From the NCBI GenBank assembly GCA_038844785.1, contig JAWBRA010000001.1, forward strand, positions 1-64,000: a DNA stretch of 64,000 bases. The letters are read 5' to 3'. A program made the translations under genes and the position numbers. Position 1 is the first letter of the stretch. Each line of letters begins with the position of its first letter. This document shows positions 57,688-63,628 of the stretch, piece after piece. Under the pieces are notes generated by a model. It had not been told where the DNA came from and ran no database searches. It was given only the letters and a program-made list of their open reading frames with translations. The DNA is from Candidatus Caldarchaeum sp. (GTDB lineage: Archaea > Thermoproteota > Nitrososphaeria_A > Caldarchaeales > Caldarchaeaceae).

Positions 57688-58533
57688 ATGAGGATAGGGT
57701 TAGCTTATGACGTGGTAAGGTTCGAGGAAAAGTCTCTGATACAAGCGGCAAACAACCTAGGATATACAGTAAAACCGATTCACGTAGTGGACCGTGAGTT
57801 CTGGCTTAACGAACCCAACGGATACGACACGGACTTTATTGTCCAGAGATGCGTCAGCCTCAGCAGAGCCCTTGCCACAACCTCAATATTCGAAAGAGCC
57901 GGCTGCTTTGTAGTAAATAACTTGGACGTTTTACGTAACTCGGCCGATAAACTGGTAACCTCATGTCTTCTGGCCAAAAACGGAATACCCACGCCGGTTA
58001 CAGCTGTTGCGTTCAAAAAGGAGACAGCCCTGTCTATAGCTAGGAAGATCGGCTTCCCCGTCGTTGTCAAACCCATTTCAGGCAGCTGGGGTAGGATGAT
58101 CGCCAGAGCTTTCGACGAGCAATCGCTAGCCGACATTTTAGAGCTGCGTGAGAATATGCCCAACCCTCAGATGAAAATCCACTATCTGCAGGAGCATGTA
58201 GACAAGCCTGAGAGGGACATAAGGGCTTTCTACGTCTGGGGTGACGTGCCTGTAGCCATCTACAGGGTCAGCAAAAACTGGAAGACTAACACTGCGTTGG
58301 GCGGGAAGGCGCAGCCATGCACGGTTACCGACGGGCTAAGGGAGCTAGTGGTGAAAGCTGGTGATGCTTTAGGGGGCGGGGTCCTCGGCATAGACATACT
58401 AGAATCGCCTGAGAAAGGTATGCTTGTAAACGAGGTAAACGGCGTTGTGGAGTTCAGGAACACTGTTCTCGTCACAGGATATGATTTAGCGTCAAAGATA
58501 ATAGCTGATACGGTAAAGGTAGTTCGTAGATGA
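57688..58533 (+). CDS. lysX: LysW ligase LysX/ArgX (RimK-like ATP-grasp)
   Basis: RFEEK, QRCVS, KPISGSWGR, RDIR, WKTNTALG, NEVN..VEF. Confidence 0.92.
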   Translation: MRIGLAYDVVRFEEKSLIQAANNLGYTVKPIHVVDREFWLNEPNGYDTDFIVQRCVSLSRALATTSIFERAGCFVVNNLDVLRNSADKLVTSCLLAKNGIPTPVTAVAFKKETALSIARKIGFPVVVKPISGSWGRMIARAFDEQSLADILELRENMPNPQMKIHYLQEHVDKPERDIRAFYVWGDVPVAIYRVSKNWKTNTALGGKAQPCTVTDGLRELVVKAGDALGGGVLGIDILESPEKGMLVNEVNGVVEFRNTVLVTGYDLASKIIADTVKVVRR

Positions 58534-59726
58534 CTGTTAAGCTTTTACGGTTCTCTTCACCGCGGGGAATCAGGGTTGTAAAAGCCGAAGGGCAATACGT
58601 TTGGGATGAAACGGGCAGAAGATATCTTGACTTCTACATGGGCTACGGCGCCGCCTTCCTAGGCTACAGGCATCCAAAGATAGTGGAGGCGTTAAAGGAG
58701 CAGATGACCAGATACATGACGATAACTCCGGCGTTCGACACAGACATTATGGACAGTTGCTTGGACAGGCTTGGGCGAATACTCCCCGCTCATCTCGAAA
58801 GAGTTTTCTTCCTCAACAGCGGGTCGGAAGCATGCGAGCTTGCTTTGAAGATAGCTAGAAAGGTTACTGGCAGGAAGAAGGTCCTAGCCTTCGTGAACAG
58901 TTTTCACGGGAGAACGATGGGCTCGCTTTCAGCCACGTGGAACCCGAAGTATCGTGAAGGGTTTGAACCATTTCCGTTTGAAACTATTTTCACACCATAC
59001 AATAACGCTGAAGCCGTTGAGGAGAAACTTGGCGAAGATTTTGCTGCAGTCATATTCGAGCCTGTTCAGGGTGAAGGTGGAATAGTGCCGGCAACGGATG
59101 ATTTCCTCAAAAGAGTTGAGAGAAAGTGTAGAGATGTCGGGGCTTTACTGATAGCCGACGAGGTTCAGTCAGGCTTCGGAAGGACCGGCCTTGTCTGGGC
59201 CCATCAAAAGGCGGGAATAAAGCCTGACATGCTGACTGCCGCCAAGGCCATAGCAGGAGGTTTTCCAGCGAGCATAATCGCGGTTACTGAGGAAATCGCC
59301 TCTAAGCTTAAAGAAACAGACCATGGTTCAACCTATGGAGGCAGCCCGCTGGCTTTGGCGGCTATAAAAGCGGCTGTCGAAGTGCTAATAGAAGAGGACG
59401 TTCCTTCCCAAGCCCATGAGAAGGGTGCAGCGATTGGAGAAATGATGTCCAAAGTCGTCGAAGAAAACCGAGAGCTCTTCAGAGGTCTCCGAAGGAGTGG
59501 CCTGATGATAGGTGTTGACATGCGGTCTCAACCAGGTGATTTTATAAGGATGCTTCAGAAGAACGGGCTGATAGGCTTTAAAGCAGGTTTGACCGTCCTG
59601 AGGTTTCTTCCACCCTACCTCATAACGGAAGGGGATATGAAAACCGCGGTCGAAGCCATGGTTAAAACAATAGAAGACTATAGGGCTTTACACGGGAAAG
59701 CTGAACATTCTCAGAGCCTCGCGTAA
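58530..59726 (+). CDS. lysJ: [LysW]-semialdehyde transaminase (LysJ/ArgD)
   Basis: NSGSEA, FHGRTMG, EPVQGEGG, DEVQSG, AKAIAGG, HGSTYGG. Confidence 0.92.
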   Translation: MTVKLLRFSSPRGIRVVKAEGQYVWDETGRRYLDFYMGYGAAFLGYRHPKIVEALKEQMTRYMTITPAFDTDIMDSCLDRLGRILPAHLERVFFLNSGSEACELALKIARKVTGRKKVLAFVNSFHGRTMGSLSATWNPKYREGFEPFPFETIFTPYNNAEAVEEKLGEDFAAVIFEPVQGEGGIVPATDDFLKRVERKCRDVGALLIADEVQSGFGRTGLVWAHQKAGIKPDMLTAAKAIAGGFPASIIAVTEEIASKLKETDHGSTYGGSPLALAAIKAAVEVLIEEDVPSQAHEKGAAIGEMMSKVVEENRELFRGLRRSGLMIGVDMRSQPGDFIRMLQKNGLIGFKAGLTVLRFLPPYLITEGDMKTAVEAMVKTIEDYRALHGKAEHSQSLA

Positions 59727-61037
59727 CAAGGGTCTCCCAGCCTCACATGCTTCAAACCAAACCCTGTAAAACGGTTTACCTACTTTGATGAGCTTTGAAA
59801 GGTCTGTCGGGCTTGAGCTCAGGATTGCGTCGCAATCGACATAGGCCAAGGTTTTCTCCAAATCTTTAAGCTGTTCAGAAGTATATCCCATCGCCGGCAC
59901 TACAGGACCTATGTGAGGATACTGGACATAGATGTCTCTTATTATTCCAGTTGAGTATGGTTTTGGGTCTACGACCACGGCTCCAGCTGAGACGGCCGCT
60001 TCATAGGCTGCTCCGTAAGCCATTCCTCCGTGAGTCAGCGAAGGCGCGTCCTCCACAACGCAGACCCTCAAACCTTTAAGCTCTTGCATTTTTTCAACAT
60101 GTATCCTAGACGCGATTTTAGCGATGATAGCCTTCGGGTTTATGGTGGATAGCTTGGATACGAGCTTGTCCACGTTTTCAGGCGCTGCTCTGTCGGTCTT
60201 GTTAACAACCATCACGTCTGCCAAAAGAAGGTTTATCTCACCCGGATAAGTGCTTGTCTCAAGCCCAGGACGCGTAGCGTCTACAACGGTAATGTGTAGG
60301 TCTGGTTTGAAGAAGGGCAGATCGTTGTTTCCACCGTCCCATAGAATTACGTCCGCTTCCTGTTCCGCCGCCTTTAAAACAGCTTCATAGTCAACCCCTG
60401 CGTATACCACAGTCCCCTCACGAAGATGCGGCTCAAACTCCTCCCTCTCCTCAACGGTGCAGTCGTACCTGTCCATGTCCTCAAGCCTCTCAAACCTTTG
60501 AACAACCTGTCTTTCCAAAACGCCGTAAGGCATGGGATGGCGTACTACAACCGTGTTGACACCTGCTTGACGCAAGAGCCTCACAACATATCTTGATACT
60601 GTGCTTTTTCCCGCGCCCGTTTTTGTGGCCGTAACCGCGACAACTTTCTTGGAGCTGGTCAGCATAGTTGACTGCGGCCCCAGCAGCATGAAGTCAGCGC
60701 CCAAGGACATGGCCAGCGAGGCTTTGTGCATCACTTCCTCATGGGTTACGTCGCTATAGGCGAAAACCACAAGCTGTATCTTCTTCTCCTTAATCAGCCT
60801 AGGCAGCTCCGCCTCGTCGTAAATGGGTATGCCTTCTGGATAGAGGGGGCCGGCCAAGCTGGGAGGGTAAACCCTCCCCGCAATCCCGGGTATTTGGGCG
60901 GCTGTGAAAGCCACCACCTCATACTCGCTCCTTCCCCTGAAAAAGACGTTAAAGTTGTGGAACTCGTGGAGCTCCTTTTACTCCGGAGCCCAGTCACGTC
61001 CCGCCGCTCCCATGATAAGCGTCCTAACCCTCTTCAT
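59688..61037 (-). CDS. Intron-split P-loop protein of the cDPG-synthetase-like / arginine synthetase (ArcE-like) family; join(61037-60993, 60962-59688), 439 aa
   Basis: Spliced N-terminus MKRVRTLIMGAAGRD|FHNFNVFFRGRSEYEVVAFTAAQIP; TKTGAGKST, RHPMPYG, WDGGNND, PAMGY. The ORF track starts it late (60917) because of the TAA in the insertion. Confidence 0.88.
60963..60992 (-). other. 30-nt bulge-helix-bulge (BHB) type mRNA intron
   Basis: GGA-CGUG-[AC^U]-GGGCUCC-loop-GGAGCUC-CACG-[AG^U]-UCC: 4-bp central helix, two 3-nt bulges, 7-bp intron stem; in-frame TAA at 60980-60978. Confidence 0.88.
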
Positions 61038-61117
61038 GCTTGTAGAGGGTTAGCGGATGGGTAAAAACCTTGTCCAAAGACTTATAATCCAACAAAGTGG
61101 ACGGATGACGAAAGCAG

Positions 61118-62200
61118 TTGGGCGAGCTAAAGGCCATTGAGGTTTACAGGGAGCCAGCCGTCTCGACATTGGTCCAGCTCCTCGAAGTCTACACACCGCC
61201 CGGAGAGGAAAGAAGGCTTGAAAGAACGTGGTTTAGAATCTGCGCAGACCTTCGGTATCATAGGGTTTGGCGCGACGAGCTTGGAAACTACTTTGCCTCC
61301 GTTGGGGATGGAGATAAAACGGTGATGCTCGTGAGCCACGTGGACACGGTTCCCGGCGAGCTGAGGGTTAGAGTTTCCGGCGGTAGAGTGTATGGCAGAG
61401 GAGCGGTTGACGCAAAAGGACCTTTATCGGCCATGCTTTTAGCAGGCAGTATTGTCGCAGATAGGCTGAAGAACTCGAGGCTTGTCGTGGCAGGGCTGGT
61501 GGACGAGGAGGGGATGGGCAGGGGCGCGAAAAAACTTGTCGAGGATGGAATATACGCTGACTCGATAGTGATAGGCGAGCCCACGGGCACGTATGGAATA
61601 GCTGTATCATACAGAGGAAGCATAAGCGTGAAAGTTATGGCGACCGCTAAGGGCGGCCACGCTTCAGCCCCATACATTGCCGAATCAGCTGTTGAGAAGC
61701 TGCTAAACCTCTGGAGGATGGTGAGCCAAGAGTTTGGCGGAACTAGGTATGAAGATATAACATCGGCTTTGACGACCATTCACGCAGGAGACTGGATAAG
61801 CCGGATACCTGACAGAGCCGAGGGAAGCATTAACATAAGGTTTCCACACCCTTACACTTCCAAGCATATACTAGCAAAACTTGAGACGTTTGTAAAAAAC
61901 AGCGGATGTTCAATGGAGATAGTTGACATAACCGAACCTGTTGTCACAAGCGTCAACAACAGAACTGCGCGTGCAATGCAACGGGCTATGCTGAAGCTGA
62001 ACTACAAACCACGAATAGTTAAGAAAACCGGAACAAGCGACATGAACACCTTAGCGTCTGTGACGAGAGACATAATTGCGTGCGGGCCCGGTGACTCTAC
62101 TCTTGCACACACAGACTCCGAATACATAGATATAAACGACATAATAACGGCTACAAGAATATACTCCGAGTTCGTCAAGGAGATTGACCTATTGCAGTAG
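61118..62200 (+). CDS. lysK: [LysW]-lysine/ornithine hydrolase (LysK/ArgE, M20 peptidase)
   Basis: SHVDTVPG, GRGAVDAKG, DEE, GEP, KTGTSDMN, GPGDS..AHT. Confidence 0.92.
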   Translation: MGELKAIEVYREPAVSTLVQLLEVYTPPGEERRLERTWFRICADLRYHRVWRDELGNYFASVGDGDKTVMLVSHVDTVPGELRVRVSGGRVYGRGAVDAKGPLSAMLLAGSIVADRLKNSRLVVAGLVDEEGMGRGAKKLVEDGIYADSIVIGEPTGTYGIAVSYRGSISVKVMATAKGGHASAPYIAESAVEKLLNLWRMVSQEFGGTRYEDITSALTTIHAGDWISRIPDRAEGSINIRFPHPYTSKHILAKLETFVKNSGCSMEIVDITEPVVTSVNNRTARAMQRAMLKLNYKPRIVKKTGTSDMNTLASVTRDIIACGPGDSTLAHTDSEYIDINDIITATRIYSEFVKEIDLLQ

Positions 62201-63628
62201 CCTGCTCAAGCCTTTTTGAAAGTTTTCTCGCTCGCTGACAATAATCTCCCTTAATGTCTTTATATCTTCCAGCATTTTGCTGGATAACCTTGCAACATGA
62301 CTGGGGTTGGCTGAGCCTTCAACGGCGTATCTCTCCACCGTTTGGCCTGCATCCATGAGAGATAAAACATCCTCGACCCCGACACGGGCTTGAATGGATT
62401 CTTCTTCGAATATTCTTTGAAGAGAGAGCTCGTTAAGCTGATGAGATGCAACAAGTCTGCTAATCCTGCCAGCCACAGCATGGGCTTTTCTGAAACTTAC
62501 ACCGTGCCTTAAACTCAGATAGTTTGCCACCTCTACGGCTGCCGTTGGCGGAGCGCATGAATACAGAGCCTTTTCACGGTTCACCTCTAATAGCTTCACC
62601 ATTTTGTTGAGAAGGTTAAGGCTTGACTCAACCTGATCTAATGCAGACCAAAGCTTAGGTGTTGTTTGCTGTAGGTCGAGGTTGTATCCGCTAGGCTGCC
62701 TTGAAAGGATTCCAGCCAATGAAGTAACTAATCCAAGGACTTCCGCAGCCTTGGTCCTCATTATCTCGGCTACAACAGGGTTGCGTTTTTGAGGCATTAT
62801 GCTGCTCGTAGCAGAGTATTCCTCCGGCATCTTCAACAAGCCGAACTCCTCAGACGAATAGAGCACCATTTCTTCGGCGAATGAGGACAGGATGACCGCT
62901 ATGATGAGAAGCTGCATCAAACAGTGGAGGAGAAAGTCACGTGAAGCCGTAGCTTCTAAAGCATTTCTGCTAATATCGCGAAAGCCTAGGAGCCGAGCCA
63001 AATAAACTCTGTCAAGAGGGACTGAAGTGCCTGCAACAGCCGCAGAACCTAGGGGACATTCTTCACAAGCCTCGATAACGTCTTTCAGCCTTGGAACAGT
63101 CTTGTAAAGCCTTATCGCATATGCTTGAAGTATGAATCCGAAGGTTGCCGGCGCAGCTCTCTGCAGATGCGTGTAGACGGGGAACAGGGTTGCCGACTCC
63201 TCAACGCTTCTCTTGAAGAGGGATTCGACGGTGTCCAGAAGCAGGATTATAAGGTTGTAGAGCCTCTGCTTAAGCTTAAGCTTAACCGCCGCCACAACAG
63301 CGTCGTTTCTGCTTTTACCCAACGCCAGCATCTCGCCCACCTCCGGAACCTTCTGCGACAGCATGGACTCTATGTATATGTGGATGTCCTCAACATCTTC
63401 AGGGATTGTGACACCCGATTTTATGATTGACGAGAGGAAGGCAACGGCCTTTTCGGCTGACTCCTTGTCCACCACACCCAGTTTCTCAAGAGCTCTGACA
63501 TGGGCTATGTTCACGTAAACCGTTTCGTCTAGTATGGCGTGGTCGAAGGATGAGGAGGAAGTGTAGGCAGCCGCATCAACGTCCATCTTCTTTTTAAGAA
63601 TCCCCTTACGATGTGGAGCTGTCTCCAT
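62189..63628 (-). CDS. argH: Argininosuccinate lyase
   Basis: EDIH, GKSRND, YTHLQRA, SSIMPQKRNP, GYNLDLQ. Confidence 0.93.
   Translation of the reverse strand: METAPHRKGILKKKMDVDAAAYTSSSSFDHAILDETVYVNIAHVRALEKLGVVDKESAEKAVAFLSSIIKSGVTIPEDVEDIHIYIESMLSQKVPEVGEMLALGKSRNDAVVAAVKLKLKQRLYNLIILLLDTVESLFKRSVEESATLFPVYTHLQRAAPATFGFILQAYAIRLYKTVPRLKDVIEACEECPLGSAAVAGTSVPLDRVYLARLLGFRDISRNALEATASRDFLLHCLMQLLIIAVILSSFAEEMVLYSSEEFGLLKMPEEYSATSSIMPQKRNPVVAEIMRTKAAEVLGLVTSLAGILSRQPSGYNLDLQQTTPKLWSALDQVESSLNLLNKMVKLLEVNREKALYSCAPPTAAVEVANYLSLRHGVSFRKAHAVAGRISRLVASHQLNELSLQRIFEEESIQARVGVEDVLSLMDAGQTVERYAVEGSANPSHVARLSSKMLEDIKTLREIIVSERENFQKGLSRLLQ

Follow-up and report, generated by a model that had tools for sequence, protein, structure and literature searches.

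A candidate bulge-helix-bulge intron in a P-loop NTPase gene of Candidatus Caldarchaeum and its relatives

The stretch of DNA analysed here (the window) comprises 64,000 nucleotides (nt) of Candidatus Caldarchaeum sp. (assembly GCA_038844785.1, contig JAWBRA010000001.1, positions 1 to 64,000). Its minus strand carries a gene for a predicted COG2403-type P-loop nucleoside triphosphatase (NTPase), which is split between the codons for GAAGRD and those for FHNFN by an insert of 30 nt, TGGGCTCCGGAGTAAAAGGAGCTCCACGAG, at 60992-60963. On the 5' side of the insert the gene reads ATG (61013-61011) GGA GCG GCG GGA CGT GAC; on the 3' side it reads TTC CAC AAC TTT AAC and the frame stays open to 59688. 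Inside the insert there is an in-frame TAA (60980-60978). An initial annotation of this DNA had described a minus-strand gene with a TAA-containing interruption of 30 nt, and we found the same letters at the same positions. It had placed the start at ATG GGA GCG; the start codon is likely to lie 24 nt further upstream, at ATG 61037-61035, since the frame is open and conserved as far as this codon and encodes the peptide MKRVRTLIMGAAGRD. ATG 61037 was taken as the start because the longer N-terminus read from there agrees with those of intron-less orthologues, e.g. MSRRVVIMGAAGRD|FHNFN. Counted from this codon, unspliced RNA gives the peptide of 19 amino acids (aa) that had been predicted.

As shown in Table 1, both junctions can be folded into a strict bulge-helix-bulge (BHB) motif enclosed by an outer and an inner helix (hBHBh'), the arrangement that is canonical for archaeal tRNA introns. 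Helices and bulges had been proposed by the initial annotation, and every pair was confirmed exactly as written. Cutting in silico after the second nucleotide of each bulge excised precisely 60992-60963 and joined GAC|TTC in frame, as had been claimed. With this rule-based excision GAAGRD|FHNFN becomes uninterrupted, as it is in 79 out of 80 diverse orthologues, and GAAGRDFH was invariant in 24 of 24 full-length orthologues. Frame and protein motif were likewise restored by the cleavage rule, in silico, in 45 of the 45 distinct insert-bearing sequences described below.

Table 1. Coordinates of the split NTPase gene, the candidate intron and its BHB motif, and the neighbouring genes.
Feature	Position	Strand	Details
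Exon 1	60993..61037	-	15 codons, MKRVRTLIMGAAGRD
Candidate BHB intron	60963..60992	-	30 nt, TAA at 60980-60978
Exon 2	59688..60962	-	424 codons + stop, FHNFNVFF...; COG2403-type P-loop NTPase (predicted)
Whole hBHBh' motif	60959..61001	-	3 + 4 + 7 pairs
Outer helix	61001-60999/60961-60959	-	GGA with UCC
Central helix	60998-60995/60968-60965	-	CGUG with CACG, 4 base pairs
5' bulge	60994-60992	-	ACU; adjoins inner helix
3' bulge	60964-60962	-	AGU; adjoins outer helix
Inner helix	60991-60985/60975-60969	-	GGGCUCC/GGAGCUC, 7 base pairs including one G-U
Loop of inner helix	60984-60976	-	
TTATAA, TATA-box-like hexamer	61082..61087	-	44 nt 5' of ATG 61037; weak, a reading of the sequence alone
lysX-like gene	57688-58533	+	
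Class-III aminotransferase	58530-59726	+	
lysK-like deacetylase	61118-62200	+	
argH-like lyase	62189-63628	-	

The protein encoded by exon 2 was used to search 41 related genomes, 27 of which contained the gene, and the junction could be read at 28 loci. An insert was present exactly between GRD and FHNFN at 15 of them, i.e. in 13 of 13 genomes of the own genus (g1) and in both genomes of genus g3, and the junction was contiguous at the other 13 (genera g2, g8, g10, g6 and g9). The family consists of 18 genomes, every one of which was examined. Insert lengths in the 15 genomes were 23 nt (five genomes), 24 (two), 25, 26, 27 (three) and 30 (three). Seven of these lengths break the frame and the remaining eight inserts contain an in-frame stop, so that none of the 15 could be translated through. 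Since the lengths are often not multiples of three, a tolerated in-frame insertion is ruled out. All seven outer and central pairs were formed in 15 of 15 inserts, and each inner region is a hairpin of a different sequence. The initial annotation had suggested comparing orthologues for presence or absence of the insert and for compensatory change, and had held that degraded pairing in insert-bearing orthologues would speak against an intron. What we obtained was a clean split between loci bearing an insert with an intact, covarying BHB and contiguous loci, with pairing kept in all 15.

The one exception among the 80 diverse orthologues, which come from named bacterial and archaeal assemblies, is a metagenome-assembled genome (MAG) labelled Aenigmatarchaeota (L079). 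Its GRD|FHNFN junction, too, contains an insert, UAGCAUCUCGCGAA, of 14 nt at 1483-1496. This insert has CGCG/CGCG as its central helix and an inner stem of only 2 base pairs, and roughly equals the cbf5 mini-insert reported below in its small size. Next, a degenerate pattern consisting of the exon 1 end, 11-40 nt and the exon 2 start was run on 401 sampled genomes of the phylum. It matched 17 genomes, 14 in the own family and three in a second family, f17, with inserts of 29 nt; the reversed control gave 0 matches. The metagenome pattern scan yielded 43 stretches; in 42 of them a homologous exon 1 precedes the insert, which is 18-37 nt long. The pooled set comprises 45 distinct insert-bearing sequences with lengths of 14-37 nt. 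Since 31 of these lengths break the frame and each of the 14 that are divisible by three comes with an in-frame stop, read-through is blocked in 45 of 45. No second copy of the intron was found in the own genome, where the best other match, 17 of 18 nt inside an intact open reading frame (ORF), is attributable to chance. Rfam gave no match at the intron site, and its sole match in the window was one tRNA.

Covariation was assessed on a MAFFT alignment with 13 distinct rows. On this alignment 98.2% of the cells were paired, compared to 31-59% when the partner strand was slid. Changes on both sides were seen in 5 of 13 pairs, and none of 500 shuffles matched the observed covariation score. RNAalifold, run on 15 sequences with no structure supplied, yielded the same hBHBh' with compensatory changes. 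One pair of the central helix alternates between U-A and C-G: the synonymous Arg codon CGU or CGC in exon 1 is matched by A or G, respectively, in the intron. For the pooled 45 sequences, the proportion of paired cells was 98.7%, versus 32-53% when slid.

Exon codons and stop codons carry signatures of their own. The sequence required by the helices, GGACGYGAY followed by TTCC, was found at only 8 of 90 intron-less loci versus 16 of 16 insert-bearing loci from the protein search, and the exon codons at the junction are, by this comparison, constrained in insert-bearing genes. A stop in the frame of exon 1 is present in 43 of 44 distinct introns, compared to 11 and 11 for the other two frames. 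After shuffling, 13.9 +/- 2.9 introns had a stop in this frame, the highest number reached in 2000 rounds being 25. In 15 of 45 distinct sequences the intron opens with the stop codon. This enrichment points to selection acting on ribosomes that continue past exon 1 when the RNA is unspliced. As a separate observation, where the central helix is CGCG, exon 1 ends in CGCGAY and the intron in CGCGAR; these two ends are near-direct repeats (L119-L121, L166-L208), because a CGCG helix is a palindrome. These near-repeats may be mere symmetry of the BHB or a hint of an origin by target-site duplication.

Several points weigh against the interpretation of the insert as an intron or reduce the weight of the figures given above. 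The motif alone occurs at chance level: a scan of the 1.74-Mb genome at a stringency comparable to that of the junction motif gave 7255 matches versus 7077 in reversed-sequence controls. When the own-genome sequence was folded singly at 37 C, the minimum free energy (MFE) structure was not the BHB (-20.9 kcal/mol for the MFE versus -17.6 for the BHB fold; z = -1.72), and 15 of 200 shuffles folded at least as well. Of 19 sequences, only 9 showed every BHB pair in the MFE structure when folded at 37 C, and 8 when folded at 75 C. The outer helix has only 3 base pairs, is invariant and receives no support from covariation; it never varies because it is built of constrained codons. The sequences are kin, and the shuffle and stop counts therefore overstate their independence. 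For the f17 and metagenome sets the search pattern dictated the exon strands, which leaves the intron strand and the inner helix as the only free evidence from these sets. Finally, no RNA read spans the junction (17 reads in run X3, see below); cleavage, ligation and any regulatory use are inferred, as no RNA evidence of a spliced junction or of a circle was obtained.

Single-sequence folding says nothing either way on the BHB. The register of the motif, unlike the motif itself, is significantly improbable by chance: when 2,000,000 random 30-mers were inserted in silico between the two real exon ends, a fraction of 3.1e-4 formed the central helix together with four or more inner pairs, and 1.6e-5 formed seven or more inner pairs. 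In our judgement it is the comparative evidence, not the motif alone, that is decisive for the intron reading. We conclude that the insert is very probably a genuine BHB intron of the type processed by the splicing endonuclease EndA and the ligase RtcB, and that it would have to be spliced for the protein to be produced.

The properties of exon 1 bear on the alternative that survives best, namely that the insert is retained, that a truncated protein of 409 aa is made from an internal start, GTG 60917, and that the 15 upstream codons are a dead remnant or a small ORF. Such an ORF does exist from GTG 60917, public gene calls use starts of this kind, and spliced RNA was not seen. Nevertheless, the N-terminus encoded by exon 1 (14-17 residues, M..R/K...I/V-I/L-M/L-GAAGRD) is open and conserved as a coding frame in 15 of 15 insert-bearing relatives, with mainly synonymous variation across the 15 genomes, and in intron-less orthologues it runs straight into FHNFN. 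An AlphaFold2 model of an intron-less orthologue was of high scores (predicted local distance difference test 92.2, predicted template modelling score 0.91). In this model, residues 3-9 form strand beta-1, which is followed by the Gly-rich GAAG loop, and the junction falls at the start of helix 1, while the internal starts that gene callers choose fall at the second strand. Strand beta-1, helix 1 and the invariant Gly-rich loop would thus be missing from the truncated product, and exon 1 is, according to the model, needed for the protein. Moreover, a dead remnant would be expected neither to keep a covarying, in-register BHB in 45 distinct sequences nor to keep its exon codons confined to GGACGY/TTC. 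We therefore consider retention of the insert improbable.

The initial annotation had predicted that the gene would be called in truncated form, and this was borne out by public databases. GAAGRD was missing from 17 of the 17 closest public protein clusters, which start at an internal V or M or inside the insert, e.g. MKKLREFHNFN. Likewise, for the f17 lineage the invariant N-terminal motif was absent from 6 of the 6 closest clusters. Annotation pipelines thus mis-call the gene across these lineages, as judged from these 17 and 6 public calls.

Even less probable, in our opinion, is that EndA cuts the BHB and the exons are not rejoined, the element serving only for processing or decay, with reduced expression or release of a 5' fragment as the outcome. 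There is a precedent in Haloferax: according to PMC7714728, EndA processes a BHB in the 5' untranslated region (UTR) of HVO_1309, and this element has an effect on expression; EndA sites in mRNAs therefore need not restore a reading frame. In the NTPase gene, however, the cleavage rule restores the frame and the invariant motif in 45 of 45 sequences and exon 1 is conserved as coding, neither of which a mere cleavage site would need, and RtcB is encoded in the genome.

Ribosomes might also bypass the insert or read through its stop. Programmed translational hopping is known from phage T4 gene 60, and the insert does offer a hairpin and a stop codon shortly past the take-off point. However, take-off and landing codons differ (GAC and GAG/TTC), the gap of 14-37 nt has no conserved sequence, and what is kept is the 3-4-3 geometry of a BHB; read-through, on the other hand, would be no cure for the 31 of 45 lengths that break the frame. 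We regard this possibility as very remote. Although the own genome is a draft in 57 contigs, an artefact of sequencing or assembly, or an insertion that recently inactivated the gene in one genome and made it a pseudogene, has a negligible probability and is refuted by the recurrence of same-site inserts in 15 separately assembled genomes of the family (one of them a single contig), three f17 genomes, the named MAG L079 and 42 metagenome contigs.

Components for BHB splicing are encoded in the own genome. Two genes of the EndA family (PF01974, above cut-off) have ORFs of 179 and 189 aa, one of which we tentatively take to be the catalytic and the other the structural subunit, going by the catalytic residues. 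One RtcB gene was found, with a score of 569.5 bits. ARAGORN predicted introns in 19 of 45 tRNA genes, several very long ones being doubtful: seven of the 19 are 646-1575 nt long and represent either mispredictions or large inserts. In the splicing pathway that we propose, the last codons of exon 1 in the pre-mRNA, GGA CGU GAC, would pair with intron bases at the 3' boundary and with UUCC at the beginning of exon 2. A two-subunit EndA would cut after nucleotide 2 of each 3-nt bulge and RtcB would join the exons, giving the ligated junction GGACGTGAC|TTCCACAAC, and the intron of 30 nt would probably be released as a circle. The spliced mRNA is predicted to encode 439 residues (15 + 424 codons), starting with an N-terminus that contains the invariant GAAGRDFHNFN, and ribosomes on unspliced RNA would stop after 19 residues at the TAA of the intron.

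Four metatranscriptome runs were mapped. Runs X1, X2 and X4 gave 0 reads. For X3, of which about 5% was read, 17 reads with at least 99% identity fell on parts of the gene body and on the neighbouring gene, with a coverage that excludes 60964-61079. First mates lay on the plus strand over 59920-60963 and on the minus strand over 59688-60035 and 61080-61400, at a depth of 1-5. These read strands fit stranded reads from a minus-strand gene and its plus-strand neighbours.

The evolution of the insert was addressed with a quick maximum-likelihood tree of 105 exon 2 proteins. Insert-bearing genes occupy four places in it (the g1 clade, g3, f17 and L079), and g3 is sister to the intron-less g2 with a support of 87 in the Shimodaira-Hasegawa-like approximate likelihood ratio test (SH-aLRT). 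Presence of the insert requires four changes on this tree, at least two of which are forced by well-supported branches. An approximately unbiased (AU) test did not reject a grouping of all 16 insert-bearing genes (p = 0.357), and repeated gain is therefore not demonstrated. The insert may have been gained repeatedly at a predisposed site, may have been transferred with an intron-bearing gene, or may be an ancient gain followed by losses. As a tentative proposal, a widespread intron family might occupy this one codon junction of the NTPase gene across several archaeal lineages, having arisen by repeated gain at a proto-splice site or having been carried between lineages with the gene. Its splicing by EndA and RtcB would then be an obligatory and possibly regulated gate on production of the enzyme. 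This family could conceivably, and with the same reserve, range over Caldarchaeum and its sister genus, a second family of the phylum, the MAG labelled Aenigmatarchaeota and many environmental contigs. If there is a proto-splice site, which we put forward only cautiously, the exon sequence GGACGYGAY/UUCC would already supply half of the BHB. Should this proposal be true, archaeal mRNA splicing would be broader than recognized and evolutionarily active, and would be systematically hidden by gene callers.

From its sequence, the protein can be classified as a COG2403-type P-loop NTPase with a G3E/SIMIBI-type (CobW/HypB/UreG-like) domain. The Pfam match to cobW (PF02492) is weak (E-value 4.9e-06; 26.7 bits against a cut-off of 20.7) and covers residues 218-280 only. 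Foldseek searches with the model of the orthologue gave matches to HypB and UreG with E-values of about 1e-3 to 6e-5, and a best match to 8oru (E-value 6e-19, 15% identity, template modelling score 0.46). A sequence match in PDB to cyclic 2,3-diphosphoglycerate synthetase (E-value 2.1e-10) extends over about 110 residues only. Judged from the model, the protein may be a distant fold relative of the cyclic 2,3-diphosphoglycerate synthetase of Methanothermus fervidus. No curated family model of NCBIfam matched it, and public sources label the family 'predicted GTPase' or 'cyclic 2,3-diphosphoglycerate synthase'. The family is widespread in bacteria and archaea; in a pattern scan of its own, a relative of the query was encoded by 597 of the 600 matches listed.

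The NTPase gene is situated in a lysine/arginine biosynthesis cluster (57688-63628), with lysX/lysJ-like genes on one side and lysK/argH-like genes on the other. At its 3' end the gene shares 39 nt (59688-59726) with the convergent aminotransferase ORF, and the TTATAA hexamer falls in the divergent spacer of 80 nt toward the lysK-like gene. Among the loci examined, this neighbourhood was kept in the insert-bearing g1 and g3 only; two intron-less g2 loci and those of other families had no such genes within 1.5 kb. A 'metabolic' function of the NTPase gene is suggested by its neighbours only.

The cbf5 gene of the own genome was also found to be split, between GHGGTL and DPAVSG, by an insert of 14 nt (C3:29381-29368, minus strand; equivalent to L136:2280-2293) with an outer helix GGGA/UCCC, a central helix CCCU/GGGG and almost no inner helix. 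Its position is the one stated for the crenarchaeal cbf5 intron (PMC2738675). Among the cbf5 loci of the order (30 genomes, L136-L165), 27 contain inserts of 13-23 nt, five of which were counted by eye where the pattern failed, and three g10 loci are contiguous. With inserts in 27 of 30 loci, the classical cbf5 intron seems to be general in this Aigarchaeota-like order. Further introns were sought genome-wide. A filter for BHB matches that restore an ORF gave no enrichment in the own genome (358 versus 327-360, and 189 versus 184-198, in shifted controls). Adjacent same-strand frames that could be fused by a BHB amounted to 2885 loose and 43 stricter candidates, with cbf5 among the latter as a positive control. 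From the 22 best of these 43, cbf5 aside, 20 were tested with Pfam and rejected as new introns, as they are pairs of separate, complete genes. Genome-wide searches for mRNA introns thus recovered only cbf5, short first exons being outside the reach of these screens. The suggestion of the initial annotation that the lineage may hide more introns is accordingly supported in part by the cbf5 insert of the own genome, whereas the genome-wide scans produced no further case.

Watanabe 2002 and Yoshinari 2006 are said to be papers on the pre-mRNA intron of crenarchaeal cbf5. In the parts of the literature dealing with such introns, cbf5 is given as the only confirmed or reported archaeal coding region with a BHB intron (PMC2738675, 2009; PMC7714728, 2020), and Schwarz et al. 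2020 (PMC7714728) add one case in a 5' UTR, HVO_1309 of Haloferax volcanii. The mRNA and protein-coding passages of a 2025 paper on the endonuclease (PMC12397907) cite only cbf5 papers. Cleavage of the crenarchaeal cbf5 intron was described as EndA-dependent and spliced cDNAs were obtained, and the survey of 2009 placed the intron in Desulfurococcales and Sulfolobales, according to the corresponding sections of PMC2738675. The lineage studied here is Caldarchaeum-like (Aigarchaeota/Caldarchaeales; the two names are equated in a passage of PMC9246946) and lies outside the crenarchaeal orders known for the cbf5 intron; its closest public proteins bear the source name 'Candidatus Caldarchaeum sp.'. 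For Ca. Caldiarchaeum subterraneum, tRNA and rRNA introns and a heterotetrameric EndA have been reported, and the passages of that paper containing the word 'intron' do not describe one in an mRNA (PMC3082918). In the open full-text literature searched, we found no report of an intron in the NTPase gene family, nor one of a cbf5 intron in Aigarchaeota.

Taken together, the NTPase gene is a strong candidate for the second host gene, after cbf5, of BHB splicing in archaeal protein genes. It would be a clean substrate for the action of EndA and RtcB on messengers, and its strict motif with dozens of natural variants already equals a compensatory-mutation experiment. A second host gene also lets one ask how splicing competes with coupled translation, on which the conserved stop within the intron bears, and informs on gain and loss of BHB introns in protein genes. 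The order-wide cbf5 insert, in turn, would extend the classical cbf5 intron beyond Desulfurococcales and Sulfolobales, to a lineage not sampled by the 2009 survey.

When the NTPase intron is compared with the crenarchaeal cbf5 intron as presented in Yokobori 2009 (PMC2738675), both are short BHB-type inserts in protein genes, with cbf5 sizes that include 22-39 nt. Both disrupt an essential conserved motif, confuse gene prediction and are present or lost by lineage. The cbf5 intron is cut by a hetero-oligomeric EndA at the second/third bulge nucleotide, the same site as predicted in the NTPase gene. The host genes differ, a COG2403 NTPase versus an RNA pseudouridine synthase, and so do the hosts, Caldarchaeales/Aigarchaeota and others versus Desulfurococcales/Sulfolobales. 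The NTPase insert falls between two codons, after the first 15 of the gene, whereas the cbf5 intron lies inside the catalytic Asp codon. Furthermore, the NTPase motif is a strict hBHBh', while most cbf5 motifs are described as unconventional BHBs (PMC2738675). The cbf5 intron has been confirmed by cDNA and enzymatically; the candidate NTPase intron is supported by sequence comparison.

The BHB in the 5' UTR of HVO_1309, as reported in PMC7714728, shares with the NTPase intron that the tRNA splicing endonuclease has an mRNA as its substrate instead of a tRNA or rRNA, a property that is predicted in our case. It differs in that the Haloferax element is in an untranslated leader and was demonstrated by knock-down and in vitro cleavage, while the candidate intron lies in a coding region and is supported by comparison only. 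With the archaeal BHB introns of tRNA and rRNA, the NTPase intron would have in common the 3-4-3 motif, the cleavage rule and the enzymes, and it is likewise short, variable inside, and gained or lost between relatives. Unlike them, it has a messenger as host, the exon halves of its helices double as codons, and its splicing would decide on protein production; the enrichment of in-frame stops has no counterpart in stable RNAs. An analogy may finally be drawn to HAC1/XBP1 splicing, the non-spliceosomal removal of a short mRNA intron by an endonuclease that cuts in stem-loops. RtcB has a role in XBP-1 splicing, according to a passage in PMC8718801, and in both systems, by prediction in the NTPase gene, mRNA exons would be joined by RtcB with a change in the reading frame of the product. 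The nuclease of HAC1/XBP1 splicing is the regulated and stress-induced IRE1, whereas EndA is proposed for the NTPase intron, where regulation could at most be inferred.

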